Below the pieces are notes generated by a model that was not told where the DNA came from, made no database searches, and was given only the letters and a program-made list of their open reading frames with translations. Below, piece after piece: positions 1,289 to 40,258 of a DNA stretch of 40,258 bases. The DNA lies in the IMG/VR virus record IMGVR_UViG_2651869695_000011; one strand, written 5' to 3'. The position numbers and the translations under genes are program-made. The DNA is from a virus. Its lineage: Duplodnaviria; Heunggongvirae; Uroviricota; Caudoviricetes. The first letter of the stretch is position 1. Each line of letters begins with the position of its first letter.

Positions 1289-1771
1289 CTATCTTGTCAG
1301 GGTGTCATACTGTTTTTCGCAGACTCTTCCGGCTTCGGCTGCCCGGTCAGCATACTCTGCCAGTTGTCTGTTTCTCTCGAGAGATTTGCTGAGCACGTCG
1401 GCAAGCAAAACTCCGGTATCTGCGGCTGACGCCCCAGCGCCGACAATGGCGTTATACTGCCTGAGCTGTTCACGGATGGCAACGAGCTGTTGCTGCAACC
1501 TGCCAGCGCGAGCGGCAGCATCAAGAGCATCATTGCGCGCCTGGTCGATCCTCTGCTGCGCTTCACGTTCATTGGTCACTTTCTCCTGTTCGTAGTACTG
1601 ACGAACTTTTTCTTCTTCGGCTTTGCGGTCTTCTTCCGCCTGCGCATACCCGGCATCGTACTGACGGCTGCCGTGTATATTCCAGGCAACAACTCCTGAT
1701 GTGGCAAGAACAGCAAGCATCGCCACGATAAGCAACTGTTTCCAGTATGCTTTTACGAATATCAGGATCAT
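1289..1771 (-). CDS. Rz-like i-spanin
   Basis: Last gene of lysis cassette; N-terminal TM segment ([18 protein letters not shown]) then coiled-coil periplasmic domain; start overlaps endolysin stop (ATGA). Confidence 0.6.
1297..1533 (-). CDS. Rz1-like o-spanin lipoprotein, embedded in Rz in another frame
   Basis: Internal ORF with start [12 protein letters not shown]|C (lipobox LAGC), Pro/Ser-rich mature part; fully nested in Rz as in lambda Rz/Rz1. Start chosen at internal ATG 1531-1533. Confidence 0.45.
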   Translation of the reverse strand: MMLLMLPLALAGCSNSSLPSVNSSGSITPLSALGRQPQIPEFCLPTCSANLSRETDNWQSMLTGQPKPEESAKNSMTP

Positions 1772-2397
1772 ACCGCCAGCACCTTACTGGCAGTTATGTA
1801 TCGCGCACGCCGGTCGTCGATGCCGTTCCGGCCACCATTGATAATCAGAGTTACACGTGCAATATCACCGGTATACTTCATGCAGCCTTTGCTGGCAAAA
1901 AACCACGCCGCACTACGAGCCGCATATTCATCCTGCGCCAGCAGTTCAGGACTCTCCAGCAGGTCAACTTTCAGACCGTTTCCACAGTCACGATAGTTAT
2001 TCAAACCGGTAATCTGGATAAGCCCGCGCCCACGGTAATTCCAGCCATCACCAGGGGCATTGTTACCCATGCGTTTGCTGTACACCAAATTTGCGATCGC
2101 TCTCTGGCGCTCAAGTGGCAATGGTGGTTCACCAGCACGGCGCCCCAATGCGTTGGCCTGCCCCTGAGTGAGACGCCCAGCCAGAACGAAGTTAGCCAGT
2201 CCGGTGACGCTGTAGTTGAAGTTCTCCTGCAGCCGGGTGAAGCCTCCAGACTCATGCCCGACCTGAGCAATAAACATTGCCTGATCTTCTGGTTTGCTGA
2301 TACCAAACTCTTTCATCGCAGAAGTTATATGCGAGAACCAGCGTGCGGCCAGCGCCTCGCTAATACCAGCAGCTCGCTGGAATTGTTTAATCTCCAT
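1768..2397 (-). CDS. Endolysin, glycoside hydrolase family 19 (chitinase-like)
   Basis: Motifs [26 protein letters not shown] typical of GH19 phage endolysins; lies between holin-like genes and Rz. Confidence 0.85.
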
Positions 2398-2695
2398 GTT
2401 TAGACCTCGTTATTTTGAAAATCTGAACGACGTTACCGCGAGTTTTAAGAACCGCAGCAAGCATGACAGCATTGATAATGACCTCAGATAAATCCACAGC
2501 CATTGGCGTGCGTAACCAGATTGCATAGACGACACGAACAGGAATACTGGCCGCAGCAACAATAAGGAAATAAGCAAGCCACCCTCCCCACCTTCGATGT
2601 TGTGAACCGTTACGCCGGAATGTGACAACACGAATTGCTATGCCAGTACAAATAAGTGCATTGGTGATAAGCAAAACAAGCTCATTAGTTACCAT
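2387..2695 (-). CDS. Holin/antiholin-like small membrane protein
   Basis: 102 aa, two to three hydrophobic segments, immediately upstream of endolysin with overlapping stop/start. Confidence 0.5.
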
Positions 2696-3086
2696 CGCCT
2701 TTTCTCCCCGGAATTAACTCGCGTGGATTATCGGAACGGTGATAGAGCCAGATGCCAATTCGAACTGCAACGATTGCTGACACGAATGCACCAGCAGAGA
2801 AAACAATCCCTTTCTCGAAAGAGTCCTGCGTGATGGTAGGGATCAGGCTGGCTACGCCGATAAGGATGGATGCAGTTGGTTTGTAGAAGAGAAGGCCGCA
2901 GAGAAAGCTGAGCATCGACAGGAGAACCCGGCGGCGGATCGGGTATTCGACAGCCGAGGTAACAAAGATTACCGCGCCTGCCAAAGACCCCAACGCCACT
3001 TCTGGCGGGACACCAGCGATTACCGCAGCGAGCGAACCCATACTAAGCCACTGATTTAAAGACTCACTTGTTAGCCCGGCTGACAT
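2685..3086 (-). CDS. Holin-like membrane protein
   Basis: About 133 aa with multiple TM segments; first gene of lysis cassette. Start set at ATG 3084-3086 (SD GGTGG); the ORF-track GTG at 3093 is less likely. Confidence 0.5.
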   Translation of the reverse strand: MSAGLTSESLNQWLSMGSLAAVIAGVPPEVALGSLAGAVIFVTSAVEYPIRRRVLLSMLSFLCGLLFYKPTASILIGVASLIPTITQDSFEKGIVFSAGAFVSAIVAVRIGIWLYHRSDNPRELIPGRKGDGN

Positions 3087-3175
3087 AATGACCACCGTTT
3101 ACTGTGCATAAAGAACCTCCTTAGTTGGTTCTCATATCATACACAATAAACCATATGTGTTTTAATTTGGTAACA

Positions 3176-3215
3176 AATGAAAAAGCCCTTTAGTGAAAAA
3201 CATTCATTAAAGGGC
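3176..3215 (-). terminator. Rho-independent terminator after tailspike (minus strand)
   Basis: On minus strand AGCCCTTTA...TAAAGGGCT hairpin followed by TTTTTCATTT, directly after the tailspike stop. Confidence 0.6.
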
Positions 3216-3226
3216 TAGATATTTAC

Positions 3227-5971
3227 TTAACCTTTAGAAAAAACAGACAGTAACGGAAGTGTAAAAGTCGACACACCAGTATTCATCATGCAGGTTTTAC
3301 CACCTGAGTATCCAGATATGGTTTGCGAAACTGGACTTCCTGTTGTTGGGAAAATGGTGATTTCATCCCCCCCCTTCAATACTCTAACTTTGCCTGTAAC
3401 ATCAACCGATGAACTTGAAACAGACGTGAGAGATCCGTTGGTCATTGTATAAAAGTTTATAGTTCCTGTTGCTGTTCTGCTTACACCACATCCTGATTTT
3501 TGCTTCTGTTTATAGTTAAACAATACCAGCAGGCCAACAGGCATTGACTCAAGCTCAACTGCTGTAGACTGGTAGGTCTTACTGCCGTTTCTCATGTCAG
3601 GAGCCTCATCATCTGGATCAGAAAAATTATACCCAAGAGTTAAATCATTAACCGTGGCATTATTCCCTGTTATTCCTTTGACTTGATTAACACTTAACGG
3701 TATGTAATTAAACCCTGCAAAAAGCGGTGTTAACTTTTCTCTAAATAAAAGGCCTGGTGGGTATACTAACGAAGGTGTACCATCATATGTCACTGAGATA
3801 ATATTAAGTCCCTTTTTAAGGGTTCCAATGCACGTTGTTTGTTTGCCTGTAAATGATGTTAGCCCATTGCTGGCAACTTTACCTGATAGATAAGAAGAGT
3901 TCCTGATGTCATTGAGAATGACATTGAACTGGTTAACACGATCTGATGAAGTATAAGTTGGGTTATATGGCTCAAATAATGTTACAGAGATATCGCTTGT
4001 ATCACTCCATACAAAATACCGACAAATAACATTTTCATTTGAAGGCGTAATCCTTCCCCATCCACCAAGTGCATCAAGATAATCACCTCCACTTAATATC
4101 GAAATTGATGGGTAGTATCTGGTATTTGAAGGGTATCCAATACCAATAAATGAAAGTTGAGTAGTAGGGATTAGGTTCTTATTTTTTACAGCTGTATAAA
4201 CGCGCTCTTTTAATACCTCTTTTGCAGCATAAGCACCGATGTATGCATGTCCTATCGTTGATGGATGGCTCTGGTCAAAGACAGTACCGCCGTCACGTTT
4301 GGCAACATCAGATATAGAGTACGCGCCTATATCTGCATAAGCGTCAGTCGTGGCAATGGACAAATCCAAAAACTCGACCTTTGGGAAAAGGCGTTCGATA
4401 CGCTTCTTAATGGCTGACTCCAGGAAAGCCTTTGGCGCATCGTTATTGTTTACAGTAACAAAGCATATCGGACAACCATATCCCCATGATTTTCTAATCA
4501 ACTTTTCAAACTCATGAAAATACGCTTCAAATCCTATTGTTGGAAGTATTCCATTGTCATTAAAACCAAGGCTTATAAAAAGAACATCAGGAGCTTTTTT
4601 TCCATACGCAGCATTCTGGAAAAATCCATAGTCGAAGTTTTCATAACCCCAACCTGTCGCAAGTGACTTGCCAGACGATCCGCAGTTATATGCTTTAAAA
4701 ATATTATCCGTGCTGTCGGATAGCATATTGAGGCAATCAGTAAAAATTCTGAACCATGAATGCTTACCGCCATTTAAATTATGATTGTAGTTGGTAGAGT
4801 TAAGATTTCCATCGCTACCAGTCGGGTTCGGGGTCCATCCTGAACTATAGGCTCCATCCGTTATAGAATCACCAATGATACCTACATGGCAATCTTCTAT
4901 AGTTGATTGGTAACTCTGCTTATTTGCAAATTTAGCAATTGTTCCAAGAGCAGTAAAATCAGGGCCATTGTTAGATAGCCCAACATCAAAAACATGCTCA
5001 TTACCCCATTTGTCTCTTGTGAGAATTTTACCTTCTCCAAGAAATTTAGTCACATCATCTGACGGTAAAAAATTACACCTGATGGTTACATCTTTTGGGA
5101 TGTAAATCTGACCAGGGAAAGCATAAATTGCACTTCTGTTGTCAGTTGTCGTGTTAATAACGACATTTGGAACATAAAATATTGACGTTGCGTCAGTTCT
5201 ATATTGTCCGTTAACAAGCTCAGATCTGAGAACCGCATCCCCAACACCTCTCCAAGCGCCAGGACCAACACCACCAGTAGTGGTAGGAGTTGATCCTGGA
5301 GGAACTACTTTGGGCAGTGGCCCGTCCCATCTGTAGTATTCGCCGTTGCTTTCCCAGAGAAGAACATCGTTAAGATAGATGATGGTATTACCCAACTCAA
5401 AAGATTTCTTCGTGTTATAGCCATACAATCCATTTTCTAAGGTTTCAATAATGGTGCTAAGTATGGTACTAAATTTTGCATAAAGATCATCAGTATATTT
5501 TTTTGTAGCAGCATCTTGGGGAAGAGATGGATCACGAAGATTTCTAATATAATTTGAAAGCGCGTCATAAAAAATTGCTACGTCATTTGGCTTTCTTAAA
5601 GCCAACTTATCATTTCTTAATGATTGTTGAATGAGCATAGTAAGTTTATCAAACGCATCCTCATGTACCTCAGCGAAGAACTTACCCTGATTACGTAAAT
5701 CCGTTTCCTGAGTAGCTGGTAGTTCTCGTGATATAGATATCTGATGACCGTTAGCCAACGCCTTCGAGAGAATTACATTACCGCCGTTATATCCTCCAGC
5801 CCCGGTAACTGTGTAATCAGTATCAAGAGCCAGCACAGCGATATTTTCGTCAAGGTCAACCACCTGTACTACCAGATCAGATTTATTGAAAACCCTAAAG
5901 GTGTACGGAAATGATGTCGTAACGCCGTTACCTGTGTATTCGTTGTGGTCAACTTCGGTTGAGACCGTCAT
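3227..5971 (-). CDS. Tailspike/tail fibre: T7 gp17-like N-terminal adaptor + SGNH (GDSL) esterase domain + C-terminal beta-rich domain
   Basis: N-terminus YTGNGVTTSFPYTF...DLVV...DYTVTG resembles podovirus fibre head-binding domain; SGNH blocks GIIGDSITDG (block I), ISLGFNDN (block III), DQSHPSTIGH (block V); SD GGAG 8 nt upstream; AT-rich body. Confidence 0.8.
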   Translation of the reverse strand: MTVSTEVDHNEYTGNGVTTSFPYTFRVFNKSDLVVQVVDLDENIAVLALDTDYTVTGAGGYNGGNVILSKALANGHQISISRELPATQETDLRNQGKFFAEVHEDAFDKLTMLIQQSLRNDKLALRKPNDVAIFYDALSNYIRNLRDPSLPQDAATKKYTDDLYAKFSTILSTIIETLENGLYGYNTKKSFELGNTIIYLNDVLLWESNGEYYRWDGPLPKVVPPGSTPTTTGGVGPGAWRGVGDAVLRSELVNGQYRTDATSIFYVPNVVINTTTDNRSAIYAFPGQIYIPKDVTIRCNFLPSDDVTKFLGEGKILTRDKWGNEHVFDVGLSNNGPDFTALGTIAKFANKQSYQSTIEDCHVGIIGDSITDGAYSSGWTPNPTGSDGNLNSTNYNHNLNGGKHSWFRIFTDCLNMLSDSTDNIFKAYNCGSSGKSLATGWGYENFDYGFFQNAAYGKKAPDVLFISLGFNDNGILPTIGFEAYFHEFEKLIRKSWGYGCPICFVTVNNNDAPKAFLESAIKKRIERLFPKVEFLDLSIATTDAYADIGAYSISDVAKRDGGTVFDQSHPSTIGHAYIGAYAAKEVLKERVYTAVKNKNLIPTTQLSFIGIGYPSNTRYYPSISILSGGDYLDALGGWGRITPSNENVICRYFVWSDTSDISVTLFEPYNPTYTSSDRVNQFNVILNDIRNSSYLSGKVASNGLTSFTGKQTTCIGTLKKGLNIISVTYDGTPSLVYPPGLLFREKLTPLFAGFNYIPLSVNQVKGITGNNATVNDLTLGYNFSDPDDEAPDMRNGSKTYQSTAVELESMPVGLLVLFNYKQKQKSGCGVSRTATGTINFYTMTNGSLTSVSSSSVDVTGKVRVLKGGDEITIFPTTGSPVSQTISGYSGGKTCMMNTGVSTFTLPLLSVFSKG

Positions 5972-6024
5972 GTTAAATCTCCAGATAGTCGCAGCACCCG
6001 TTGCGCCGCATATCCGATCATTCT

Positions 6025-6090
6025 ATTACCTAAAAAACCACATATGGATAGATAACCCATAAATACGAACAGATATTACCTTTCAGGTAA
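6025..6090. promoter_or_regulatory. Bipartite upstream element of the tailspike operon: ATTACC-TAAAAAACCACATATG plus palindrome TTACCTTTCAGGTAA
   Basis: Perfect 6+3+6 palindrome at 6076-6090; AACCACATATG at 6036-6046; same arrangement recurs upstream of portal and early-gene operons. Confidence 0.45.
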
Positions 6091-6129
6091 TTCGCAAAAC
6101 GTGCTGGATAGCAAACAAATTATTTGCTA

Positions 6130-6145
6130 CTGTATAAATATACAG
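6130..6145 (+). promoter_or_regulatory. LexA (SOS) box
   Basis: CTGTATAAATATACAG matches CTGT-N8-ACAG with AT-rich core (consensus TACTGTATATATATACAGTA); 8 nt upstream of SD GGAG and ATG at 6167. Confidence 0.7.
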
Positions 6146-6166
6146 TTATTACATGGAGAAGATAAG

Positions 6167-6424
6167 ATGCAGCAGTATCACTATCCACTGGAAGACGGAT
6201 TTACCGAAAGGATTCACACGCCGGGAGGCGTCAGGTCACTGGTGGAGGGATCGCACTTGATGAAATTACTCCGGGATCTCGATAAGGATGGATTTAATGT
6301 CGATGGCCCACTTGCCGAACTGACTGCACTGATTAACTACGTCACCAGCTCACAGATGTCTATGCGGGATCTGCAAACACATCTCGACTATTGTGCCGAA
6401 CAATTACGAAAACAAACCAGATAA
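6167..6424 (+). CDS. Small antirepressor-like protein (stand-alone paralogue of the Bro-N protein C-terminal domain), LexA-controlled
   Basis: 85 aa; SD GGAG at 6154-6157; aligns with last ~70 aa of the 6740-7450 product (shared IH.P.GV..L.E.S.LM.LL..L..DG..V.G..AELT...Y......RD.QTH..Y). Upstream GTG 6101 extension rejected. Confidence 0.5.
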   Translation: MQQYHYPLEDGFTERIHTPGGVRSLVEGSHLMKLLRDLDKDGFNVDGPLAELTALINYVTSSQMSMRDLQTHLDYCAEQLRKQTR

Positions 6425-6560
6425 GATTTGAAATTACCAAGAGGAGTGCTTATATTTACCTTTGCGGTAAATTTACATCGCACTCCTCTTGTGCCATAGT
6501 AATCGGGCACTGGCAAAATCCAGTGCCGGGATTGGCGTCCCGAGTTACTAAGTGGCGCAT

Positions 6561-6583
6561 ACCACGCCAGACGTGGTTTTTTT
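6561..6583 (+). terminator. Rho-independent terminator
   Basis: ACCACG-CCAGA-CGTGGT hairpin followed by TTTTTTT. Confidence 0.55.
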
Positions 6584-6739
6584 ATGCGTTAAGCACAGCC
6601 ATATCCGAATTATGGTGGGCTGGGCAGGGGTCCGAAAGGACGCCGGTACCACTTAGGCCGGTACGCCAACCTTGTCCAGTTCACCACCAGTAATTGGCGT
6701 TGCGGTGGTGATTAAAATCACTAAGTGGAGATAACCACC

Positions 6740-7450
6740 ATGGCTAATGCTCAAACTGCCATCTTCAAATTTGAATCTGTTAACCCTATCCGTTCCATCA
6801 TTATCGATGGCCAACCATGGTTTGTAGCCCAAGACGTTTGTAGTGCGCTGCGTATCCAAAACGTCACCCAAGCACTTGAAAAACTGGATGATGATGAAAG
6901 GTCTATGTTCAACATAGGGCATGAACATCGTGCAATTTTTGACAGCCGAGTAAAAGAGATCAACATCATCTCCGAGTCAGGCCTCTACACACTGATCCTC
7001 CGCTGCCGCGATGCGGTGACACCAGGCACTATCCCCTACCGCTTTCGTAAATGGGTTACAGGTGAGGTTCTTCCTCAGATCCGCCGCACCGGAAGTTACA
7101 TTAAAAACTCGCTCCCGCAGGAAGAACGCATAAAGATGGTTGCCGACCAGGTAGCCAACGCCACAGCATCAGCAGTGATGCAGGCAATGAAGATAGAGAA
7201 CAAAACCTACAGTGCCCCACTGAAGCCCGGCTACCGCAGTCTGATTCATTCTCCGTCTGGTGTTCTCGGCCTGACGGAGAACTCACTGCTGATGAATTTG
7301 CTGAACCAGTTGCAGGAAGACGGGCACGATGTATCGGGCGCGGCGGCGGAGCTGACCACCATGTTTTGCTACATCGTTGGTGTGAGCAAATGCCTGCGTG
7401 ATATCCAGACTCACGCGGAGTACATCAACGACAAGGCTGGGTTCTTCTGA
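6740..7450 (+). CDS. Bro-N domain antirepressor-family protein
   Basis: Classical Bro-N signature (FKFESVNPIRSIIIDGQPWFVAQDVCSAL...LDDDE...ISESGLYTLIL...FRKWVTGEVLPQIRRTG); SD GGAG 9 nt upstream of ATG 6740; C-terminal domain paralogous to 6167-6424. Confidence 0.75.
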   Translation: MANAQTAIFKFESVNPIRSIIIDGQPWFVAQDVCSALRIQNVTQALEKLDDDERSMFNIGHEHRAIFDSRVKEINIISESGLYTLILRCRDAVTPGTIPYRFRKWVTGEVLPQIRRTGSYIKNSLPQEERIKMVADQVANATASAVMQAMKIENKTYSAPLKPGYRSLIHSPSGVLGLTENSLLMNLLNQLQEDGHDVSGAAAELTTMFCYIVGVSKCLRDIQTHAEYINDKAGFF

Positions 7451-7597
7451 CGGGCGGCGGCACAGGGATGTGCCTTTAAATAATTCTGTACAGATTGCAG
7501 ACTGTGGGTGAATAGCGTACTATTACCTCAAGGGTAAACGGATTGGTTTCATTTTTATTAATCCGTGTAATGAACTTATGAGATATGAGGTAATGTC

Positions 7598-7777
7598 ATG
7601 CGAAACGAAAAATTGCAGATGCGTAGAGCGCAAGCTGCCGCAAGACGTTCTTTCAATGGAAGCGTAGAGTACGTAAAAGTTACTATGACAAAAGATCACG
7701 CAAGTCGCGTATCCCGAGCTTTCTTTGATTCTCGTAACAATAAGGAAAATTATGAGTTCGTCTGCGTCGCAGAATGA
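7598..7777 (+). CDS. Small basic protein (59 aa), possible DNA-binding or antitoxin-like partner
   Basis: Not in ORF track (below size cutoff); good SD TGAGGTAA 6 nt upstream of ATG; Arg-rich N-terminus; 3' end overlaps start of next gene in a different frame. Confidence 0.3.
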   Translation: MRNEKLQMRRAQAAARRSFNGSVEYVKVTMTKDHASRVSRAFFDSRNNKENYEFVCVAE

Positions 7778-8297
7778 TAAAAATCAAATTGTCAGATATA
7801 AGGGTCGAGTATTGCATACGCAAAATTTCTCGGCCCTTTGTGCATCTGATCTTGAGCTGAAGAAAGTATCTGATGCCTTTACCCAGTATTGGAAAACGGG
7901 ATACCATCCATCTCTTGGTAAAGATGCTGCATTTGCTCGTCCGACAGAAATGCTTAAACTAAATGTCAGGCATACTCATGTCGATAACCAAGACTATATT
8001 CCAGAAGATAGTGATAAAAAACACACTGGTAAAAAATCATCTTGGGATGCATGGAAAAATATAGCGTCTGTGCAAGTAAAATGCATACCAACAAGTGATT
8101 GCTTTTTAGTTTATTCGGTAAATCACAATCGTGATGCGCTGGTTATGTTTTTTGTTGACGCAGATGCCCACAACATAACTGAGCAAGAAGAGTTTAAAGA
8201 GGAAGCAATCACTATCAGTTATCAATTCTTTGAGAAAACAAAAACAGAACCAATGCCTTTAGAAGAAGATCTTTTTTCTGATAAATGGAAGGAATAA
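7752..8297 (+). CDS. Hypothetical moron protein (181 aa), no family recognised
   Basis: SD AAGGA 7 nt upstream of ATG 7752; AT-rich codon usage unlike neighbouring virion genes; followed by a strong terminator. Confidence 0.5.
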   Translation: MSSSASQNDKNQIVRYKGRVLHTQNFSALCASDLELKKVSDAFTQYWKTGYHPSLGKDAAFARPTEMLKLNVRHTHVDNQDYIPEDSDKKHTGKKSSWDAWKNIASVQVKCIPTSDCFLVYSVNHNRDALVMFFVDADAHNITEQEEFKEEAITISYQFFEKTKTEPMPLEEDLFSDKWKE

Positions 8298-8319
8298 GCC
8301 CGCGTTGCGGGCTTTTTTG
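8296..8319 (+). terminator. Rho-independent terminator
   Basis: GCCCGC-GTT-GCGGGC then TTTTTTG immediately after the stop codon. Confidence 0.65.
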
Positions 8320-8356
8320 TGTCTGCGGATTCCCGCCCGGGCGGCGGTGGCATTCG

Positions 8357-8396: not shown

Positions 8397-8957
8397 CTAC
8401 ATTGATATATGATTCATAAAGTAGCTTAAAGATTTACTTCCCAGAAAAGAAATTTCTTTTCCTGGATATGTCGCAATAATTGAGCATGACTTATCCCCGT
8501 TAGAGGTAACAAATCCTGAATAACCTACTTGTTCTTTACCATTTTGTTGCTTGGCTAAAAAGTAGAGGTAGCTTATCTTTTTGCCCTCTGGGTAAAACTC
8601 TGCCAAACCAGTATCGGTGATTGAATATTTTATTCTCCCGCCTTGAGTAACGTTTTCCATCTCAAGTTTAGCTATGTCTTTTCTGTTGTATTCAGCATTG
8701 ATTTTCCTTTCGAAATCAATGTTGTTTTCAAATGAGTAGGAAGCAACAGTCTGAATAGATGGGAACACGTTTATCTGGATGCCTCCACAGTCGGCACAGG
8801 TATAAAGGTATGAATCAGATGGAATCCCCATAAAAGAAAACTGAGTTACCTTAAATTTATCGTTATCTCCAAAGTATTGAAGTTCGCATTTAACATTTTG
8901 CCCTGCAAAAGAAAATGCAGACATCAATATTGAAACAAAAAATATAATTGCCTTCAT
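8397..8957 (-). CDS. Secreted protein (cleavable signal peptide), function unknown; last gene of virion operon
   Basis: N-terminus MKAIIFFVSILMSAFSFA|GQ; start 2 nt after stop of upstream 850-aa virion gene; markedly AT-rich. Confidence 0.55.
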   Translation of the reverse strand: MKAIIFFVSILMSAFSFAGQNVKCELQYFGDNDKFKVTQFSFMGIPSDSYLYTCADCGGIQINVFPSIQTVASYSFENNIDFERKINAEYNRKDIAKLEMENVTQGGRIKYSITDTGLAEFYPEGKKISYLYFLAKQQNGKEQVGYSGFVTSNGDKSCSIIATYPGKEISFLGSKSLSYFMNHISM

Positions 8958-8959
8958 TA

Positions 8960-11512
8960 TTATTTACCTAGCATGAACTGCGATGGTGGGATCAGAAAGT
9001 CGTTACCCTGCTCACGCTCAACACGGCGCTGATAACGCTCAAGAGAGCCTGGGTCAAGGGCATCTTGTATCCGGTTCAATATTAAACCATTCATCGCCGT
9101 ACGAAGCCAGAACACGTTGAGGAATGGCGTATTGTCAAGTGCCGTGCGATACCAGTCACCCAAATCTGCATCCCCTCTCGTGGTCTGCTGGAGCAGCGTG
9201 ATAATGCTGTCAGCGTTCGATGCTGCTGGCCCCATTAGCGACGTAACCGGCCCGGCCCCCATGCGGTTGACCTCGCCAAACATGAAGTCACCCAAGATGC
9301 CAAGACCGCCCCCCTGAGATGCGGCTGCGAGAAACGTCTTGGCATCTGCCGGGCGTGGTGTTTGCCCTTTCAGCATGAGTTTTGACTGCATGGAGATATA
9401 ACCAAACATAGTCGCCCAGACAAAGAGGTTTGCAGCACCAAGGAAAGCCCCCTTCCCGTTACGTAGCAGCGCATTCGTCAGCGATCCGGTTTTCGACTCA
9501 CCAAGCCCAGCAGGAATATAACCACGCCCGAATACTTCGCGTCCTAGTACGTTCTGCATGAAGCTTGCAGTGAACGATTTGTACTGACCAGCGAATCGTA
9601 TTGCTTCCCCAGCCACCGTTCCTGGCACCGTGCCCATCTTCATAAACGCCTGCGTGCGATCGCCAGGCTCTGACATGGCGATATTCAGGCGGTCAAGGAT
9701 GTAGCCGCGCAACTGCCCTTCCAATTGATCGCGTGCGTCAGCGATAGCGCGCTGCGTTGGTTTGATCCCCTTACTCTCTACATAACCGGCAATCACTTCG
9801 TCAGGCACGCCGCGGATGCCGCTGGTCGTCATGAACTTACGACCTTCGCTATCGGCCATGTCCATGTTGCGAAAAATTTCCCACTCACGTTCGCCAATAC
9901 CGTGCAGATCCAGCACGCGTCGCAGGTCTTCCGGTAGCCGCGCATGAGACTGGTCAGCATTCTTTGCAAGCCAGTTGGTTATCATCATGGCGTTGCTGTT
10001 GCGACCGCTCTCGGTCCAGAAGTTCATGAGGTTGTACTTAAAGAAAAGCTGCTGCGCGCGACCAAGCTTTCCATTCAGCGTGTCATCACCAGATATGCGC
10101 CGGATGATTTCCTGCGTCATGGAGTCGGAATAAACTCCGATAGAGGAAAGGATCTCTTTCTGCTCCGCGCTGTTGTAACGCGTGAAGCGGCCTCTCATAG
10201 CACCAAGCAACGCCTGCATAAAATTCTGCCCTTGGTAGCGCATCTCGGTAGCGGCGATAGGCACGTCGTTAAACGATGAGATTACCGCACCACCAAGTTG
10301 GCTCATACGCAACCAGCCGCGTACAGCCGCCGACGCATTGGCCCAGCCTACGCTGCCAGGAATATTTAGCGAGCCGTCAACCTGCGGCATTACGGTACGG
10401 TTAATGCGACGCACCTTCGTCATGTAGTCAGCCAACGCTGCCGGTCTTCCGGATTTGCTGATATCTTCAGCAATGGCGTCCGTCAGGTACTTAAACATGT
10501 TCTGTGGGTTAGTGCCCAGTACGCGCATCATGCCCGTTGTGCGGGCAGCGCTGTTTAAGCCACCAAACAGCGCTTCTCGCAGGCTGCCGGTGCCGAATTG
10601 CTGGTTGTACTCGTGCCACGAGATACCATCTTTGAAGTGCAAAATTCGCTCTTGGCTGGCGCGTTTAGCTGCGTTCGCCGATCCCTTAAAGCCATTCATC
10701 CAATCGGGCTTTTCAGATGTAAGATGCACGCCGGAAGCCAGCCCGTTATAAATGTTACGCATGAACTGCTCGCGGTCAGCCACGCCGTCAAAAGTGCGCT
10801 CATCAAGGCGCGGGAGAATAGCATTTCGCCATGCTTCATAACCTGCGGCGCGGATCTTCATGATGTCGTGTGACTGGCGAACTATATAGCCCGGCTCTTT
10901 GCGTATCCATGCCCCGGCGCGGTTCTCATCAATGCGCGCAGTTTCCTGCCATTTCATGATGATTTGTGCAGCGCTTACGGATTGCTTTGTCATACCGTCA
11001 GTTGACTGCCCGCGCCCTATGCGCCACATTGCATCGGCAATTTCCCGGTCATTGCTGCCGCTGGCGATGAATTGCACCAGTCCGGCACGGTCAAAATCGT
11101 AGTTGATACCGGAATGATACTTGCCGCGCAGTTGCGCCACCTCCGAAGATACCGACCGGCGGGCGCCGGTACGCGCATCGTTGCGGCCAACCAGCATTGC
11201 TTCAAGCCCGATATCCGGGCGGTCTTTCCAGATAGTACGAAGCTCTCTAAGTCGTTGTGCGGCAATACGGGCGTTGATTGCCTTATTGCGAGCCTCAATC
11301 TGTTTTGCCAGCATATCGGCATTGCTCAGTTCTTCCGCTGCGCGCATCGCGGCCTCTTCCAGAGACAGCGCCTCATTGGTCGCCAGAATTCGCCTAGTGG
11401 TGTCGTTCATGTCACGCACCAGCGACTCCATCTCATCGGAAGAAAGCTCGCGACCAGCGGCAGCATTTACACTGCGCTCGCACTGCGTCAAAAATTCGTT
11501 TGCTGCCATCAC
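8960..11512 (-). CDS. Large internal virion (ejection/core) protein
   Basis: 850 aa, in block of large proteins between tail tube and tailspike as in T7 gp15/gp16 region; call by position and size. Confidence 0.5.
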   Translation of the reverse strand: MMAANEFLTQCERSVNAAAGRELSSDEMESLVRDMNDTTRRILATNEALSLEEAAMRAAEELSNADMLAKQIEARNKAINARIAAQRLRELRTIWKDRPDIGLEAMLVGRNDARTGARRSVSSEVAQLRGKYHSGINYDFDRAGLVQFIASGSNDREIADAMWRIGRGQSTDGMTKQSVSAAQIIMKWQETARIDENRAGAWIRKEPGYIVRQSHDIMKIRAAGYEAWRNAILPRLDERTFDGVADREQFMRNIYNGLASGVHLTSEKPDWMNGFKGSANAAKRASQERILHFKDGISWHEYNQQFGTGSLREALFGGLNSAARTTGMMRVLGTNPQNMFKYLTDAIAEDISKSGRPAALADYMTKVRRINRTVMPQVDGSLNIPGSVGWANASAAVRGWLRMSQLGGAVISSFNDVPIAATEMRYQGQNFMQALLGAMRGRFTRYNSAEQKEILSSIGVYSDSMTQEIIRRISGDDTLNGKLGRAQQLFFKYNLMNFWTESGRNSNAMMITNWLAKNADQSHARLPEDLRRVLDLHGIGEREWEIFRNMDMADSEGRKFMTTSGIRGVPDEVIAGYVESKGIKPTQRAIADARDQLEGQLRGYILDRLNIAMSEPGDRTQAFMKMGTVPGTVAGEAIRFAGQYKSFTASFMQNVLGREVFGRGYIPAGLGESKTGSLTNALLRNGKGAFLGAANLFVWATMFGYISMQSKLMLKGQTPRPADAKTFLAAASQGGGLGILGDFMFGEVNRMGAGPVTSLMGPAASNADSIITLLQQTTRGDADLGDWYRTALDNTPFLNVFWLRTAMNGLILNRIQDALDPGSLERYQRRVEREQGNDFLIPPSQFMLGK

Positions 11513-13206
11513 ATCCCCCGGTTAATCATACAGGCGGCAAATGCCCGGAAAGCGTTGCTCATGCTATTGTCGCTGGCGTCGGCACGAATATCATTGAGTT
11601 TCTGGCGCAACGTGGTCGCAAGATCAGGGTTATCGACAGCGATATCGTCAAGCAGGGCGTTACTCAGGTTGAGCTCGTTATCAAGGTCTGCAGCGGCAGC
11701 GGTAATTTCATGATCTGCCTTTTGCGTTTCTTGATAAACCCGATCGGCTGTTTCGCTTGCTGGGCGAGCCGTTTCATCAACCTGCCGTGCCGGGTTCTGT
11801 ATGCGATGGATGGCGCGTTCACGCAGTGCCGGTTTGTGCAGTTCATAGAAGGGCTCAACATCTGGGCTACGTCCTTCCATCATGTGTGCCAGCGCAGCGC
11901 GATACGCCTGCTGGTTCACGTTCCAGTCAGCATCCCTGATGGCGCTTGCGGCAGTGCGAACTGCGCCAGCGACCGGCGACATCTGCATGCCGTCCAGGAT
12001 CTGCTGCGCACGCTCGGAAATGGTGACTTTCAGATCGTCGGGGATATCGCCGCGGGAAATCTGAGACTGGCGCCAGCGCGCCTGCTCTGCTGTCGCGTTC
12101 TGCTCCAGCGATGTGTTGATCTCCTGATTGCGTGCAGCGATGGCGTCTTTCTCGGCCTGAATCTCTTTCAGTGCCCTAGAGCGCGCATCCTTAAACTTCA
12201 TCCGCTGCCCCTGATACTTTTTGGTGCGCTGCTGCAGCGTCGCATCAAGCGAGTCAGCATGACGTTGATTAGCCGCAAGCTCGGCACGCAGGTCGGCAAC
12301 GTTACCGATCTGCCCGCTCTGTAACTCCTGCTGGCGCGCCATATAGTCAGGAACCACGTCGTCATAAGCCCGGCTGTATGCGTAGCTCTCCGCTTCACTG
12401 GAAATGGCCGCCGCCAGATCTGCGTTAGCGCCAACCTCAGGGATATTCACGCCCGCCGGAATGTTGTCAGGCGTTATCACCGGGGTTGGCTGCGCATCGC
12501 CAGAAAACGCCGGGGACTCTCCCGTTGCAGCATCGGGAACGCGACGCGGTCGCACGATATCGGCGATAAGGCCGCCGCCGGCATGCATTAGACCGCCAGC
12601 CATCGTGTTAAAGAAAGTACTTTCCAACGCGTTGCTATAGGTGAAGTCGTCACCTTCCGCCGCCGCTGCCAGCCCGGTAAGCGGCACGGTCACCACCGCC
12701 TGCGCTGCCCCCATGCGTGCACCAGCAACAAATCGCTCGCCAAATCGGCCAAGCACAGAAGCCGCCTTTGCTTCTCCAGCGAACGGAACCAGCGCCAGCG
12801 CCACGTTACCAGGATCTGCCATTGAACCAGCTAGGCTGGCTGCGAAATTAAGCGGCGTGGCTACCCACCCGCTCGGTGCCGACATCGCGATCTGCTGGCG
12901 TGCCAGAGAATCTTTGCGTTCGGCAATAACATGATCGAGAAAAGCCTGCGTAACGCCAGAATCTGGCACGTTTATGCTCTTTACGCCGTACTGCTTCAGG
13001 AGCTCATCCGCTTCCTGCTTACTGATAACTGTAGAGTTTGGGTCATTCGCCAGCGAGTCGGCCTGCGCAAAGCGGTAGCCGGACATGACCGGCCCCTCTT
13101 CAAATCCCTGCTTAAGGGAAGAAAGCAGCGATTCGCCAAGCCCTGCTGGCGCGTTGCCAATTGGCTGGTTAATTCCCTGTCCCGGATCATCTGTGTAAAT
13201 TGGCAT
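11509..13206 (-). CDS. Internal virion protein (coiled-coil rich)
   Basis: 565 aa, overlapping stop/start with neighbours, long Ala/Gln/Glu-rich helical segments; position-based call. Confidence 0.5.
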   Translation of the reverse strand: MPIYTDDPGQGINQPIGNAPAGLGESLLSSLKQGFEEGPVMSGYRFAQADSLANDPNSTVISKQEADELLKQYGVKSINVPDSGVTQAFLDHVIAERKDSLARQQIAMSAPSGWVATPLNFAASLAGSMADPGNVALALVPFAGEAKAASVLGRFGERFVAGARMGAAQAVVTVPLTGLAAAAEGDDFTYSNALESTFFNTMAGGLMHAGGGLIADIVRPRRVPDAATGESPAFSGDAQPTPVITPDNIPAGVNIPEVGANADLAAAISSEAESYAYSRAYDDVVPDYMARQQELQSGQIGNVADLRAELAANQRHADSLDATLQQRTKKYQGQRMKFKDARSRALKEIQAEKDAIAARNQEINTSLEQNATAEQARWRQSQISRGDIPDDLKVTISERAQQILDGMQMSPVAGAVRTAASAIRDADWNVNQQAYRAALAHMMEGRSPDVEPFYELHKPALRERAIHRIQNPARQVDETARPASETADRVYQETQKADHEITAAAADLDNELNLSNALLDDIAVDNPDLATTLRQKLNDIRADASDNSMSNAFRAFAACMINRGM

Positions 13207-13207
13207 G

Positions 13208-15829
13208 TTATCGTCCTGATTGCTGGCCGTTCTGGAAAATGTTAATCAGGTTGTCGCGCTGACTTTCTGCGCTGTATTCCTTAGACTGTCCGGGAGTATA
13301 TTTCACCGGAGTATCAATGAACTTGGTAATGCTGTTCCATACTGATCGGTTGGTTGTTCCCAGTTTCGCCAGATCGTTGAACGGCACCGTAATCGGGTTG
13401 CCGTCGGCACCGTTGACGATCAGCCCGTTGAGCATCAGGGTAAGTCCTGTTTCGTCGCTGTTGGTAACCCACTGCGCATTATCACGAATGCGGGAGATAC
13501 TCTGCTCACGGTTGACCTCATCAGGTAGCCTTGGGTCACCAATAAGCGGCATAATCTGATCTGCTGACAGGTTTTTCAGATACGCATTGGCACCATCGTT
13601 AACGTCACGAATATCTATCCCTGCACGCTTAGGTAGCCGCCAAGTGCCATTGGTCTGGTACTGCTCGCCGAGGATGTCCTGATACGCCTGTTTTGCTGCA
13701 TCAGACGCCGACATTCCGCGCTGCATGTTGATGTAAGTAAGTCGTTTTCCCTGCTCGTTGAAGTTATTCCACACGGCAGTGCCACCAGGCTGAACAACCA
13801 TCGTGCCAGCAAAATCTTTCGATTGGTCATTCCATGACGAGTCGGCGCTATCCGCGTCGGTTTTCTCAAGACTGCCGCGTAAGTCAGCAGTTTTAACGCT
13901 ACGGTTTTGCCAGAGCGCATTTGCCGCGCGCGGGTTCTCGGTAGCCATGACAACCTGCAACGCAGGATAAGCGCTCTTCTGAACCTGCTGCATCACCTGA
14001 TCCGAGTATTTGCCGAACGACTGCGCCACCGACTGAATGGCCTTTACGCTAGATTCCTGCGTGTTGTCAATACGCTGCAGTACATCATTGACCATGGACT
14101 CCGGTAAAACTTTTTTGCTCATTATCCCCAGGCGGTCTTTTTCAGACTGTATTCGGGAAACTAGGTATTCACCAGATGAAGGGTCATTCAGGTACTGCTG
14201 GAATGCAGCCTGCACAACCGGAGAGTTTTGTTGCAGCCATGCCCCCGGATCCGCTTCCCGCGCCTTCAGTACCTGCCCAAGCTTGACCTTTGCCGATGCA
14301 TAAAGCTCTGCTTTGTATTTAAAGTCAGGGTCGTTTTCCTGCGGTGCCATTGCCTGCACGGCGGCGGTACCCTGCTGGACGTTGCCCTGCATAATGGTCT
14401 GATAAACAGGTTGTAGCGTCATTGCCTGCTGGTATTGCTGGAAGGTTTTTTCCATCTGCAGGCGCTCGGCAGGCGCTGCCTGAAGCGGCATAACGGCGGC
14501 CCATTCGTGCGCTGAAATAGGCGTCACCTGCTTACCGGCCTCAATTTTGGATAGGTCGTCCTGCATTCGACTCTGTAGCGCAACGCGACCGGCTGAAGCC
14601 TGCATGTCGTACATGCCAGCAACCTTGCTCATCATCTGCGACTTTTTGTCCGGACTCATGGCGTTCCAGAATGGCTGTGCGATGAGGTTTTCCATCGTCG
14701 CAGATCCAGGAATAGCTCCAGCACTGCCAGTTACTTTTGCCACATAATTGCGCGTCTCGTCGTATGGGATAGCTGCGGCAAACTGGGCGTTACTGACTTC
14801 GCCTGTGCGCGGGTCGCCAATCTGTTTAATCCAGCCGTCAACCTTTCCTGGGCCAGCGTTATAGGCAGCTACTGCCAGAACCGGGTTATTGTCGTATTTC
14901 TTCATCTGCGCGCCGAAATAAGCTTGCCCCAAGCGGGCATTATAGCGCGGGTCATTCAACCATTTATCGCGGTCCCACGGCACGCCAGCAAGGCGGGCAG
15001 CTTCGGGGCCAGTATCTTCCGTCACCTGCGCTACGCCAACAGCGCCTTTTGGCGACACCAGAGGTGTTCCGTCCTTTCCGTACTGATTTCCGCCACTCTC
15101 CTGCCAGATTATTGCAGAGAATAACTGCGCCTCACTCGGTGTATCGGTTACCTCAATCTTGCCGTTCGGACCCATCATCTGTTGATACATCGGCACATAC
15201 CACGCCTCCGCCGCACCGTTCGCGGCATTCTCGCGCCACGAAACCCAGTTCTGTTCGATCTCTTCCTGACTCTGGCCGTGGGCTTCGCCGTAAGCGATGA
15301 TGCTATGATATGCCTTCAATCCTGCCTGGTTTGCCATTGTCGGGTTACGGAACTGCATCGATAGGTTTTTTAGTGTCGCATCCTGCATATCCGCCTCATA
15401 CTGGCGAACCTGTCCTATTTCGTACCTCCCGGCCTGCGTAGTGAACTGAATGCGCTGCTGCTGCGCCTGCTGCATGAAAGCATTACGAGCCTGTTCATCC
15501 GGCAGCGACATAGCCAGTTGCTCGACCTGGGCATCAAACTGCTGCGTATACTCCTGACCTTTTCCAATAGCATTTTTCCCTTTCAGGTTAAGCAATCCTG
15601 TTTCAGGATTATTCAGCAGATCGCTGCTTATCTGACTGAGGTTAAGAGATGCCTCCTGAGCCAGAGCGATATTGGCACGCTGTTTTGCCTGCCCCAAAAC
15701 ATCAATTGCCTCTGTCCCTGCCCGAACAAAAGCATCACCAATACCTTGCTGAGAAAACGTCTGCAAGCCTGCTGACTGAACTCCACGACTCTCAACCTGA
15801 CGTCCGGATACTGTTGGTACGACTGGCAT
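13208..15829 (-). CDS. Internal virion protein with lytic transglycosylase (SLT) domain
   Basis: Motifs IIWQESGGNQ...AVGVAQV...AAYNAGPGKV characteristic of family-1 lytic transglycosylases; start set at internal ATG 15827-15829 (SD GGAGG, TAATG overlap with upstream gene). Confidence 0.8.
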   Translation of the reverse strand: MPVVPTVSGRQVESRGVQSAGLQTFSQQGIGDAFVRAGTEAIDVLGQAKQRANIALAQEASLNLSQISSDLLNNPETGLLNLKGKNAIGKGQEYTQQFDAQVEQLAMSLPDEQARNAFMQQAQQQRIQFTTQAGRYEIGQVRQYEADMQDATLKNLSMQFRNPTMANQAGLKAYHSIIAYGEAHGQSQEEIEQNWVSWRENAANGAAEAWYVPMYQQMMGPNGKIEVTDTPSEAQLFSAIIWQESGGNQYGKDGTPLVSPKGAVGVAQVTEDTGPEAARLAGVPWDRDKWLNDPRYNARLGQAYFGAQMKKYDNNPVLAVAAYNAGPGKVDGWIKQIGDPRTGEVSNAQFAAAIPYDETRNYVAKVTGSAGAIPGSATMENLIAQPFWNAMSPDKKSQMMSKVAGMYDMQASAGRVALQSRMQDDLSKIEAGKQVTPISAHEWAAVMPLQAAPAERLQMEKTFQQYQQAMTLQPVYQTIMQGNVQQGTAAVQAMAPQENDPDFKYKAELYASAKVKLGQVLKAREADPGAWLQQNSPVVQAAFQQYLNDPSSGEYLVSRIQSEKDRLGIMSKKVLPESMVNDVLQRIDNTQESSVKAIQSVAQSFGKYSDQVMQQVQKSAYPALQVVMATENPRAANALWQNRSVKTADLRGSLEKTDADSADSSWNDQSKDFAGTMVVQPGGTAVWNNFNEQGKRLTYINMQRGMSASDAAKQAYQDILGEQYQTNGTWRLPKRAGIDIRDVNDGANAYLKNLSADQIMPLIGDPRLPDEVNREQSISRIRDNAQWVTNSDETGLTLMLNGLIVNGADGNPITVPFNDLAKLGTTNRSVWNSITKFIDTPVKYTPGQSKEYSAESQRDNLINIFQNGQQSGR

Positions 15830-25436: not shown

Positions 25437-25513
25437 GTGGCATTAGCTCAGTTGGACAGAGCAACCGCCTTCTAAGCGGTTGGTCGCAGGTTCGAATCCT
25501 GCATGCCGCGCCA
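25437..25513 (+). tRNA. tRNA-Arg (anticodon UCU)
   Basis: Cloverleaf by hand: acceptor GTGGCAT/ATGCCGC (one U-G pair), D-arm GCTC-AGTTGGACA-GAGC, anticodon arm ACCGC-CTTCTAA-GCGGT, T-arm GCAGG-TTCGAAT-CCTGC, discriminator G, encoded CCA; close to enterobacterial argU. Confidence 0.85.
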
Positions 25514-39007: not shown

Positions 39008-40258
39008 TTATTCCCCCGCCATCCACTTCTCAAACTTCGACGGGGAGAACGGAATCAGATCCGTATGCTCCCCGTTAATCCAGGAATCAATCATATCGGC
39101 CCACTGCTGCAACATGTAGGCGCGCTGTCTGGCGTATTCCGCTTTGTTATATACGGCGCGTACACCTTTCTGCTCATGTGCCAGAGCCTTTTCAATCCAG
39201 TCTGAAGGATAACCAGCCTCATGCAACAACGTACTGGCTGTACGGCGCATATCATGTACAGTGAAGTCCTGAATATGCTCACCATCTTCATTTATTATTT
39301 TCACCGTTCTGTCGATCAGAGAGTTCAGAGCGGCATTAGATAATGGCTTCCGGAAGTTGTAACGACCAGGAACCAGATATTCACTTCCACCAGCGCACAT
39401 CTGTAACCCGACCAATATATCCTGTGCCTGTTTAGGCAGGTAAATAACGTGCGCCCGGCTTCCCTTCATGCGGTCTGAAGGAATTGTCCATGTCCATTTT
39501 TTAAAATCTATTTCATCCCACGTTGCATTGGTGAACTCGCCTTTACGAACCATAGTGATAAGCACCAGCTTTAAAGCCATTTTCATAGTGCCCATAGCAC
39601 CAATGGCATCCAGCGTACGGAAGAACAGGCCAATTTCTTCTGGTGTCAGTGTTCGCTCTCGTGGTTTAAATATGGCGATAGACGAAGGTTTAATGTCAGC
39701 CGCAGGATTAAACAAACCATGACCACGGTCATTGGCGTGACGGTATACGCTGCTGATAATCTCCCTGGCCTGTACTGCTGTTGCCCGGCCACCGCGTTCG
39801 ACAATCCGGTCACACAAATCACGAACCATCGATGTGGTAATTTCAGTCATCATTTTGTTGCCAAGAACCGGAAGTATGTCACGGTCGATCACCGCCTGCT
39901 TCATTGCGCGGGTACTTTCAGCCAGGATGACGTGTTTCATATAACTGTCGGTATGTACCGCAAACGTCTCGGCACCACGAATCTTTTTGATACCGTCACG
40001 TTTAGCCGCAGCCGGCGACTGGCCTGCTTTAAGCAGCTTCTTTGCAGCAATCAGTTCTTCTCGCGCTTCTGCCAAGCTGATACCGTCACGCCCATACTGC
40101 CCGATTACCAGTGTTTCGCGGCGACCGTTGATACGGTAGTCATAGCGAAACGAGACCGTACCTGACGTAAGCACAGCTACATACAGCCCGTCACGATCGG
40201 AAACTTTGTACAGTTTGTCCTGTGGCTTGAGGTTTTTTAATTTTGTATCGGTAAGCAC
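39008..40258 (-). CDS. int: Tyrosine integrase (P4-type); 5' end at window edge
   Basis: N-terminus LTDTKLKNLKPQDKLYKVSDRDGLYVAVLTSG (arm-binding domain typical of P4-like integrases); C-terminal HDMRRT (HxxR) and catalytic Tyr region; first codon in window is GTG, true start may lie 1-2 codons beyond the window. Confidence 0.85.
   Translation of the reverse strand: MLTDTKLKNLKPQDKLYKVSDRDGLYVAVLTSGTVSFRYDYRINGRRETLVIGQYGRDGISLAEAREELIAAKKLLKAGQSPAAAKRDGIKKIRGAETFAVHTDSYMKHVILAESTRAMKQAVIDRDILPVLGNKMMTEITTSMVRDLCDRIVERGGRATAVQAREIISSVYRHANDRGHGLFNPAADIKPSSIAIFKPRERTLTPEEIGLFFRTLDAIGAMGTMKMALKLVLITMVRKGEFTNATWDEIDFKKWTWTIPSDRMKGSRAHVIYLPKQAQDILVGLQMCAGGSEYLVPGRYNFRKPLSNAALNSLIDRTVKIINEDGEHIQDFTVHDMRRTASTLLHEAGYPSDWIEKALAHEQKGVRAVYNKAEYARQRAYMLQQWADMIDSWINGEHTDLIPFSPSKFEKWMAGE

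Follow-up and report, generated by a model that had tools for sequence, protein, structure and literature searches.

Which structure on the bacterial surface is recognized by the tailspike of a temperate podovirus, and what does the spike do to it? This question is raised by the gene at positions 3227 to 5971 of IMG/VR virus record IMGVR_UViG_2651869695_000011 (Caudoviricetes), a stretch of 40,258 nucleotides that is called the window here and whose numbering is used throughout. A first-pass annotation of the letters had described the gene product as a tailspike with an SGNH esterase domain on a T7-type adaptor and had proposed that the host is recognized by O-antigen deacetylation. Our analysis indicates that the protein is very probably the tailspike of a phiV10/epsilon15-like temperate podovirus, whose esterase is predicted to deacetylate a polysaccharide of the host surface, most probably the O-antigen. 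This reading is drawn from sequence comparisons and a structure model.

The tailspike coding sequence occupies exactly 3227..5971, stop codon included, on the minus strand, as do all features of this gene described below. In the open reading frame (ORF) list it is the only ORF there, with an ATG start and a length of 914 amino acids, and its exact sequence is public as WP_052905316.1. A Shine–Dalgarno sequence (GGAG, 5979..5982, minus strand) can be read 7 nucleotides 5′ of the ATG, and the N-terminus of the protein (MTVSTEVDHNEYTGNG...) is identical in dozens of homologs. We considered whether the gene might be a pseudogene or a remnant, but this is ruled out by the intact frame, by a start that is placed as in the relatives and by the occurrence of the identical 914-residue protein on 12 contigs. 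The gene is intact and maintained, in prophages whose neighboring genes differ.

Compared by sequence and by model, residues 190–914 are the domain-for-domain counterpart of gp63.1 of phage G7C, an assignment made because the Pfam domains, the closest solved sequence and the closest solved fold all point to it. A Tail_spike_N domain (PF18668, the type found in CBA120 TSP1 and G7C gp66; 5237..5419, residues 185–245) scores 65.3 bits against a cut-off of 25, and PDB entries 9vvr, 4oj5 and 5w6f match the same stretch. Ahead of it, the AlphaFold2 (AF2) model places a helical linker at about residues 158–179 with low confidence. Then comes "domain 3" of gp63.1 ("G7C tail fiber protein domain 3," PF21562; 4982..5173, residues 267–330), which matches at 108 bits (cut-off 27) over model positions 1–65 of 66. 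The SGNH esterase domain (4202..4894, residues 360–590) is delimited by alignment, Pfam GDSL coverage and fold superposition. It is followed by a galactose-binding-domain-like beta-sandwich (G7C_GBD, PF21988, "Podovirus tailspike galactose-binding domain-like"; 3743..4141, residues 611–743; 34.9 bits, cut-off 27), a region that can be aligned with gp63.1 as far as residue 664. The last domain is a concanavalin-A-like beta-sandwich of the lectin or carbohydrate-binding-module type (3230..3736, residues 746–914), the most variable domain among close relatives. A beta-rich C-terminal domain of ~350 residues had been proposed in the first-pass annotation. Its beta-rich character holds, but by Pfam and the model this part measures about 315 residues (about 600–914) and is made of the two beta-sandwiches.

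The likeness to gp63.1 that had been suggested earlier is confirmed at two levels. Among solved structures, the best sequence match is gp63.1 (PDB 4qnl; E = 5.9e-104, residues 190–744), and 4qnl is also the best Foldseek match of the model in the PDB (E = 1.6e-65, 781 aligned columns, TM scores 0.65/0.69). The C-terminal beta-sandwich and the overall fold of the tailspike are the same as in 4qnl. No beta-helix or pectate-lyase family was detected in the tailspike by Pfam, and the model contains alpha/beta and sandwich domains only. This model was built with 55 homologs and has a mean predicted local distance difference test score of 83.4. Only the helix at residues 85–179 has low confidence, which is what one expects of a segment that depends on partners.

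The SGNH motifs listed in the first-pass annotation are all present as quoted: GDSITDG at residues 367–373, GFNDN at 469–473, and DQSHP at 566–570 with GH at 574–575. An additional block II motif, NCGSSGK, lies at residues 429–435. The likely catalytic triad is Ser369-Asp566-His569, and Ser369, Gly434 and Asn471 likely form the oxyanion hole. The corresponding codons are found on the minus strand at 4865–4867 (Ser369), 4670–4672 (Gly434), 4559–4561 (Asn471), 4274–4276 (Asp566) and 4265–4267 (His569). In a 14-sequence alignment (A1) that includes gp63.1, a Kagunavirus spike and relatives from Providencia, Proteus and Vibrio, with identities to the query of 30–97%, these five residues are invariant throughout. 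They align with S276, G345, N382, D470 and H473 of gp63.1, the first of which we take to be the published catalytic serine. Loss of the catalytic serine or histidine on alignment had been named as an outcome that would speak against an esterase. This is not what is seen, because Ser, Gly, Asn, Asp and His are conserved in every sequence of the alignment, gp63.1 among them. The esterase part of the model also superposes on SGNH esterases in Foldseek comparisons (4rsh, target TM score 0.79; TesA 9ge8_T, 0.78; 9otv, 0.71). A lipase or lysophospholipase that acts on membrane lipids, the database label of one relative (P0014), was considered as well and is less likely; the end-to-end match is to a polysaccharide deacetylase set between two carbohydrate-binding-type domains.

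Residues 1–165 (5477..5971) match a virion-binding anchor of the epsilon15/phiV10 type in tblastn, PHROG, PDB, Pfam and Foldseek comparisons. In tblastn, the anchor is 69% identical to epsilon15 gp20 over residues 1–200, 64% identical to phiV10 gp25 over residues 1–220, and 86% identical to its counterpart in phage PAS61. The fiber N-termini of PDB entries 28lx and 8ck1 match residues 1–128 (E = 2.4e-25). A podovirus fiber head-binding domain of ~120 residues had been proposed for this end of the protein. The domain is real, but it is longer than that, with PHROG tail families spanning residues 1–163/168. In phiV10, the anchor has been delimited at 205 residues (PMC10408124).

The proposed relationship to T7 proved to be distant. 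Pfam model PF03906 (T7 gp17 N-terminal domain) is colinear with the anchor over model positions 9–149 of 157, but its score of 15.7 bits (E = 0.012) is below the cut-off of 25.2. A BLASTP comparison of the anchor with T7 gp17 residues 1–172 gave no significant alignment. When a ten-sequence anchor profile was compared with the same T7 residues by hhalign, the two were colinear (12–162 versus 11–156) with E = 0.018 and a low probability. Foldseek matches the anchor to a T7 tail-complex entry (7ey9_a; E = 2.3e-4, target TM score 0.50), to 8ck1_B, and to the fiber N-termini in the PhiM1 (8vbx_S) and Kp7 (7y22_e) tail complexes. Because BLASTP finds nothing, the link to T7 therefore rests on the subthreshold Pfam match, the weak hhalign result and the fold matches. 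In one relative (P0006), the body follows a true PF03906 domain (41.5 bits) at the corresponding position. The anchor is specifically of the epsilon15/phiV10 (Uetakevirus) type, and "T7-type" is acceptable as the name of a distant structural class; its kinship with the N-terminal domain of T7 gp17 is remote.

These assignments can be combined into a working model. The protein would be the single spike of an integrated Uetakevirus-type temperate podovirus of Escherichia coli. Its ~165 N-terminal residues would hold the spike, presumably a trimer, on the tail hub in the manner of epsilon15 gp20 and would be followed by a flexible helical linker, by Tail_spike_N and then by the gp63.1-like body. 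The spike would bind an O-acetylated polysaccharide of the host surface, most probably the O-antigen, from which Ser369, His569 and Asp566 would take off acetyl groups while the sugar backbone is left uncut. Repeated cycles of binding, deacetylation and release could then lower the short tail to the outer membrane without depolymerizing the chain. Specificity would be determined by the groove of the esterase together with both beta-sandwich domains, and the C-terminal lectin-like domain, which diverges fastest among close relatives, fits such a role. The reading frame, the domain order, the homology and shared fold with gp63.1, the conserved catalytic residues, the prophage setting and the recombination breakpoints come directly from the comparisons; we infer the trimeric state, the enzymatic activity, the identity of the substrate and the use of deacetylation in penetration, with activity and O-antigen substrate taken from homology.

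Several observations weigh against this model. The Pfam GDSL models cover residues 364–579 with scores below their cut-offs (24.6 versus 32.9, and 21.3 versus 23.6), an NCBIfam scan of the tailspike matched no family, the structure model is a monomer, and the tailspike is only 30–37% identical to gp63.1, so that its sugar specificity certainly differs from that of gp63.1. The subthreshold GDSL scores would also suit a domain that has lost catalysis and serves as a carbohydrate-binding scaffold, with recognition by binding alone. We regard this as very improbable: all 14 relatives, down to 30% identity and including the active gp63.1, keep the residues of blocks I, II, III and V unchanged, which one would not expect of a dead enzyme. 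Moreover, the esterase activity of G7C is reported to be essential for infection (PMC10743462). The same architecture and chemistry could instead be directed at an acetylated capsule (K-antigen) or another exopolysaccharide rather than at O-antigen, which we consider unlikely. SGNH receptor-binding proteins of temperate Klebsiella phages have been linked to capsule types, and two of them are active esterases (PMC13123978); in E. coli, the epsilon15-type anchor bears other types of esterase, including the sialate O-acetylesterase-type (PF03629) spikes P0107 and P0108. However, the relatives characterized experimentally in the papers cited here, G7C gp63.1 and the spikes of Pectobacterium phages, act on O-polysaccharide (PMC10743462, PMC9569702). 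The two E. coli backbones on which the body occurs, epsilon15/phiV10-like and P22-like, are known users of O-antigen, the latter being represented by the same body on a P22-type head-binding domain (P0010/L005). Acetylation of O-antigen is annotated in the phiV10 record, and O-antigen binding is described in a preprint on epsilon15 (bioRxiv 10.64898/2026.07.31.742079).

Deacetylation of O-antigen might also be joined by a second activity, if the C-terminal jelly-roll cleaved polysaccharide as a lyase or glycanase, in the way that epsilon15 gp20 pairs a glycosidase with an esterase; we judge this pairing to be highly improbable in the present spike. Another possibility concerns the reason for an esterase-only spike. 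In the window, the spike-to-lysis interval is 131 nucleotides long (3096–3226) and free of genes, whereas phiV10 carries the O-acetyltransferase gene oac at this place (L004, 9641–10657); in the phiV10 record, superinfection immunity is the role given for acetylation of the O-antigen. Acetyltransferase and glucosyltransferase genes were sought elsewhere in the prophage, and none was present among 20 ORFs scanned against Pfam. There is a curious contrast between phiV10, whose oac adds O-acetyl groups, and a phiV10 relative that is predicted to remove them. Through oac, phiV10 puts an O-acetyl mark in place to exclude rivals. The relative, which lacks oac, might use just this kind of mark as a receptor and strip it, and its esterase-only spike would then answer that move in a rivalry over acetylation of the O-antigen among members of a single genus. 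This scenario is speculative, and we think it improbable. If it is true, lysogenic conversion by acetylation would not protect but would instead create a vulnerability.

The first-pass annotation had further proposed that the receptor-binding module was recently exchanged. This proposal is supported by sharp DNA breakpoints and by the recurrence of the body behind six or more further types of N-terminus. In blastn, the DNA at window positions 8321..5234, through codon 247, is 97.1% identical to that of a sister prophage (L006) integrated at the same chromosomal site. Beyond this codon no similarity is detectable until position 3167, where the lysis genes resume at 76%; the end of the 97% identity places the upstream recombination breakpoint at 5234, codon ~247. 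Conversely, the tailspike of a P22-like E. coli prophage (L005) shares codons 290–904 (3261..5104, minus strand) at 93.8% DNA identity in blastn. That prophage has homologs of P22 gp7, gp20 and gp16 upstream of the spike, an integrase downstream, and a PF09008 head-binding N-terminus on the spike itself.

The protein homologs show the same pattern. In P0011 and P0071–79, the anchor and Tail_spike_N are 94–98% alike, and the downstream parts are unrelated or 38–57% identical. In P0010 and P0014, the esterase is 95–99% and the galactose-binding-like domain 98–99% identical to those of the tailspike, and the N-terminus is the P22 head-binding domain (PF09008); the C-terminal domain is 99% identical in P0010 and has no match in P0014. 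In another homolog (P0007), identity falls from 92% in the esterase to 81% in the galactose-binding-like domain and 62% in the C-terminal domain. The same body is also found behind N-termini of Enterobacter, Kagunavirus, T7 and Vibrio tail-collar types. The comparisons support the view that, from codon ~247/290 to its end, the body is a cassette that is exchanged horizontally and is also in use among P22-like prophages.

Two side observations concern the surroundings of this exchange. The holin-endolysin-Rz cassette (1638–3167, minus strand) is only 76% identical to L006 8405–9916, and both of its flanks are nearly identical to L006 (spike anchor and upstream region, 97%; bacterial flank, 95%). 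Since it lies between near-identical flanks, the lysis cassette appears to have been exchanged, together with the spike body or separately from it. Independently, the epsilon15/phiV10 anchor bears at least three other unrelated bodies in E. coli (P0107, P0108, P0071–P0079 and P0097), among them a 750-residue GDSL esterase, a 673-residue sialate O-acetylesterase (PF03629) and pectate-lyase-like beta-helix types. Esterase bodies seem frequent on this anchor, in a match list that is biased by the esterase in the query.

On the 12 contigs that carry the identical protein, the prophages differ in neighboring cargo genes, and the upstream virion protein has 849 or 824 residues. WP_052905316.1 belongs to a 90% cluster of 113 members, which NCBI names "SGNH/GDSL hydrolase family protein" or "tail fiber/spike domain-containing protein." In complete E. 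coli genomes, megablast found no full-length match of the body, and a search in distant mode gave only an 80-nucleotide match, in 4 of 5,426 genomes. The body is thus rare among finished genomes, and these matches gave no lead to the host serotype. The combination of anchor and body is absent from 50,697 phage records, none of which covers 80% or more of the protein. This combination is new only for isolated phages and is common enough in draft E. coli assemblies.

The tailspike gene was described earlier as AT-rich and as having its own promoter region and terminator. Its base composition is borne out by 150-nucleotide windows, in which GC content is 0.33–0.48 across the gene versus about 0.50–0.59 for most of the prophage. 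The terminator is likewise confirmed by an intrinsic-terminator-like hairpin (3180..3216, minus strand) with a 9-base-pair stem, a 15-nucleotide loop that holds an inner 4-base-pair stem, and a U-run. Its arms, AGCCCTTTA (3216–3208) and TAAAGGGCT (3192–3184), are followed by TTTT, and the hairpin begins 11 nucleotides past the stop codon. The predicted RNA fold has a free energy of −16.5 kcal/mol (z = −3.0), and 3 of 200 shuffled sequences fold equally well. The promoter did not hold up in the same way. A sigma-70 scan found no minus-strand promoter site in 5972–6200, and the number of promoter-like sites in the region (11) is below the shuffle mean (15). The best candidate seen by eye, a TAGAAT −10 box ~40 nucleotides upstream of the tailspike, has a poor −35 element and is unconvincing. 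Separate transcription is suggested by the gene layout, the sole argument for a promoter of its own, because opposite-strand genes spanning about 2.4 kb, together with two terminators that face each other (8296–8314 and 8383–8366), separate the tailspike from the upstream virion genes. The same layout of opposite-strand genes between spike and virion genes exists in phiV10.

By its sequence, the window is a phiV10-like E. coli prophage. Over long stretches it is about 97% identical to phiV10, PAS61, phiv142-3 and many E. coli chromosomes. Along the minus strand, genes for virion proteins, including an 850-residue structural protein, are followed by a 186-residue ORF. Ahead of the spike lies an opposite-strand block of a YafO-like ORF, a Bro-N antirepressor and an epsilon15 gp19-like ORF; after the spike come two holins, a GH19 endolysin, Rz and the attachment junction. 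Beyond this junction, bacterial genes encode a DUF5384 protein and a glycine-zipper lipoprotein, and the integrase gene is at the other end of the window (39008–40258). As in phiV10, the spike has the divergent Bro-N/gp19-like genes on one side and the holin-endolysin-Rz cassette on the other.

Some neighboring genes were noted in passing. The YafO-like ORF (7725–8297, plus strand; 190 residues) scores 26.1 bits against the YafO toxin family (cut-off 25), also matches phrog_1651, and occurs in some but not all of the prophages with the identical spike. The 186-residue ORF (8397–8957, minus strand) resembles a signal peptide at its N-terminus, is located where GC content is low (0.38), has no Pfam match, and matches phrog_11983 (function unknown) over its full length; it sits between the gene for the 850-residue virion protein and the facing terminators and is absent from the sister prophage L006. 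At 8960–15400 (minus strand), three genes encode large virion or ejection proteins of 850 (phrog_684), 565 (phrog_3003) and 898 residues (phrog_1044), the last of which includes a lytic transglycosylase-like part. These three genes have no megablast match in phiV10-like phage records, where matches begin at ~15400, and they occur at about 98% identity in some E. coli prophages. A tRNA-Arg gene (anticodon TCT; 25437–25513, plus strand) is found within the prophage, and the structural genes on either side of it run on the other strand.

This tailspike is a tidy but ordinary case of the gp63.1-type family, and the exact protein is already in NCBI as an SGNH/GDSL hydrolase. It opens no new question, because the family, its structure (a crystal structure and dedicated Pfam models) and its mechanism have been described and public pipelines label the exact protein. 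SGNH receptor-binding proteins are reported to be among the commonest enzymatic domains in Klebsiella prophages, with two shown to be active (PMC13123978). The present spike adds a clear E. coli case to the growing evidence that temperate phages often recognize their hosts by deacetylating surface sugars, not by cutting them. Its breakpoints are also unusually clean and show how epsilon15-like and P22-like prophages trade an entire esterase body. The protein could be used as a serotype-specific probe, or as a reagent for removing O-acetyl groups, as soon as its substrate has been identified.

Among characterized proteins, the nearest counterpart is gp63.1 of G7C, a virulent N4-like phage. Residues 190–914 of the tailspike follow the same order of Tail_spike_N-like domain, "domain 3," SGNH esterase, galactose-binding-like and lectin-like domains, with identical catalytic residues. 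In contrast, residues 1–102 of gp63.1 have no counterpart in the tailspike, since the phmmer alignment starts at gp63.1 residue 103, and the epsilon15/phiV10 anchor is found instead. In G7C, gp63.1 is part of a branched fiber with gp66 (PMC9569702). It has been described as an O-antigen deacetylase (PMC10743462, PMC13123978) that does not break the backbone of the O-polysaccharide, is indispensable for infection and is probably processive, and acetylation-deficient host mutants resist G7C (PMC10743462). More distant still are the tail fibers of the virulent Schitoviridae phages CB1, CB4 and Nepra (Cbunavirus, Pectobacterium N4-like), which are ~33% identical over residues 190–897. In the same genus, Possum gp66 has a central SGNH domain homologous to that of G7C and deacetylates O-polysaccharide (PMC9569702). 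The closest relatives of the body in isolated phages are the Kagunavirus spikes of Schulenburg, Snoke, Sciku and Shashou (51% over residues 212–909, C-terminal domain included), but these belong to siphoviruses, are encoded behind a lambda J-like tip protein and have a different N-terminus.

On the side of the anchor, epsilon15 gp20 resembles the tailspike in its 69% identical N-terminal part, in its genome position and in carrying an SGNH esterase, which deacetylates O-antigen galactose (bioRxiv 10.64898/2026.07.31.742079). However, most of gp20 is a beta-helix endorhamnosidase, to which the esterase is added as a C-terminal "petal," whereas the tailspike has no beta-helix and a central gp63.1-type esterase; the beta-helix body characterizes epsilon15 gp20, not the whole Uetakevirus genus. 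The spike of phiV10, also a Uetakevirus, shares the anchor, the gene order around the spike and a phage backbone that is 97% identical over much of the genome. It is in the receptor-binding body that phiV10 gp25 and the tailspike differ.

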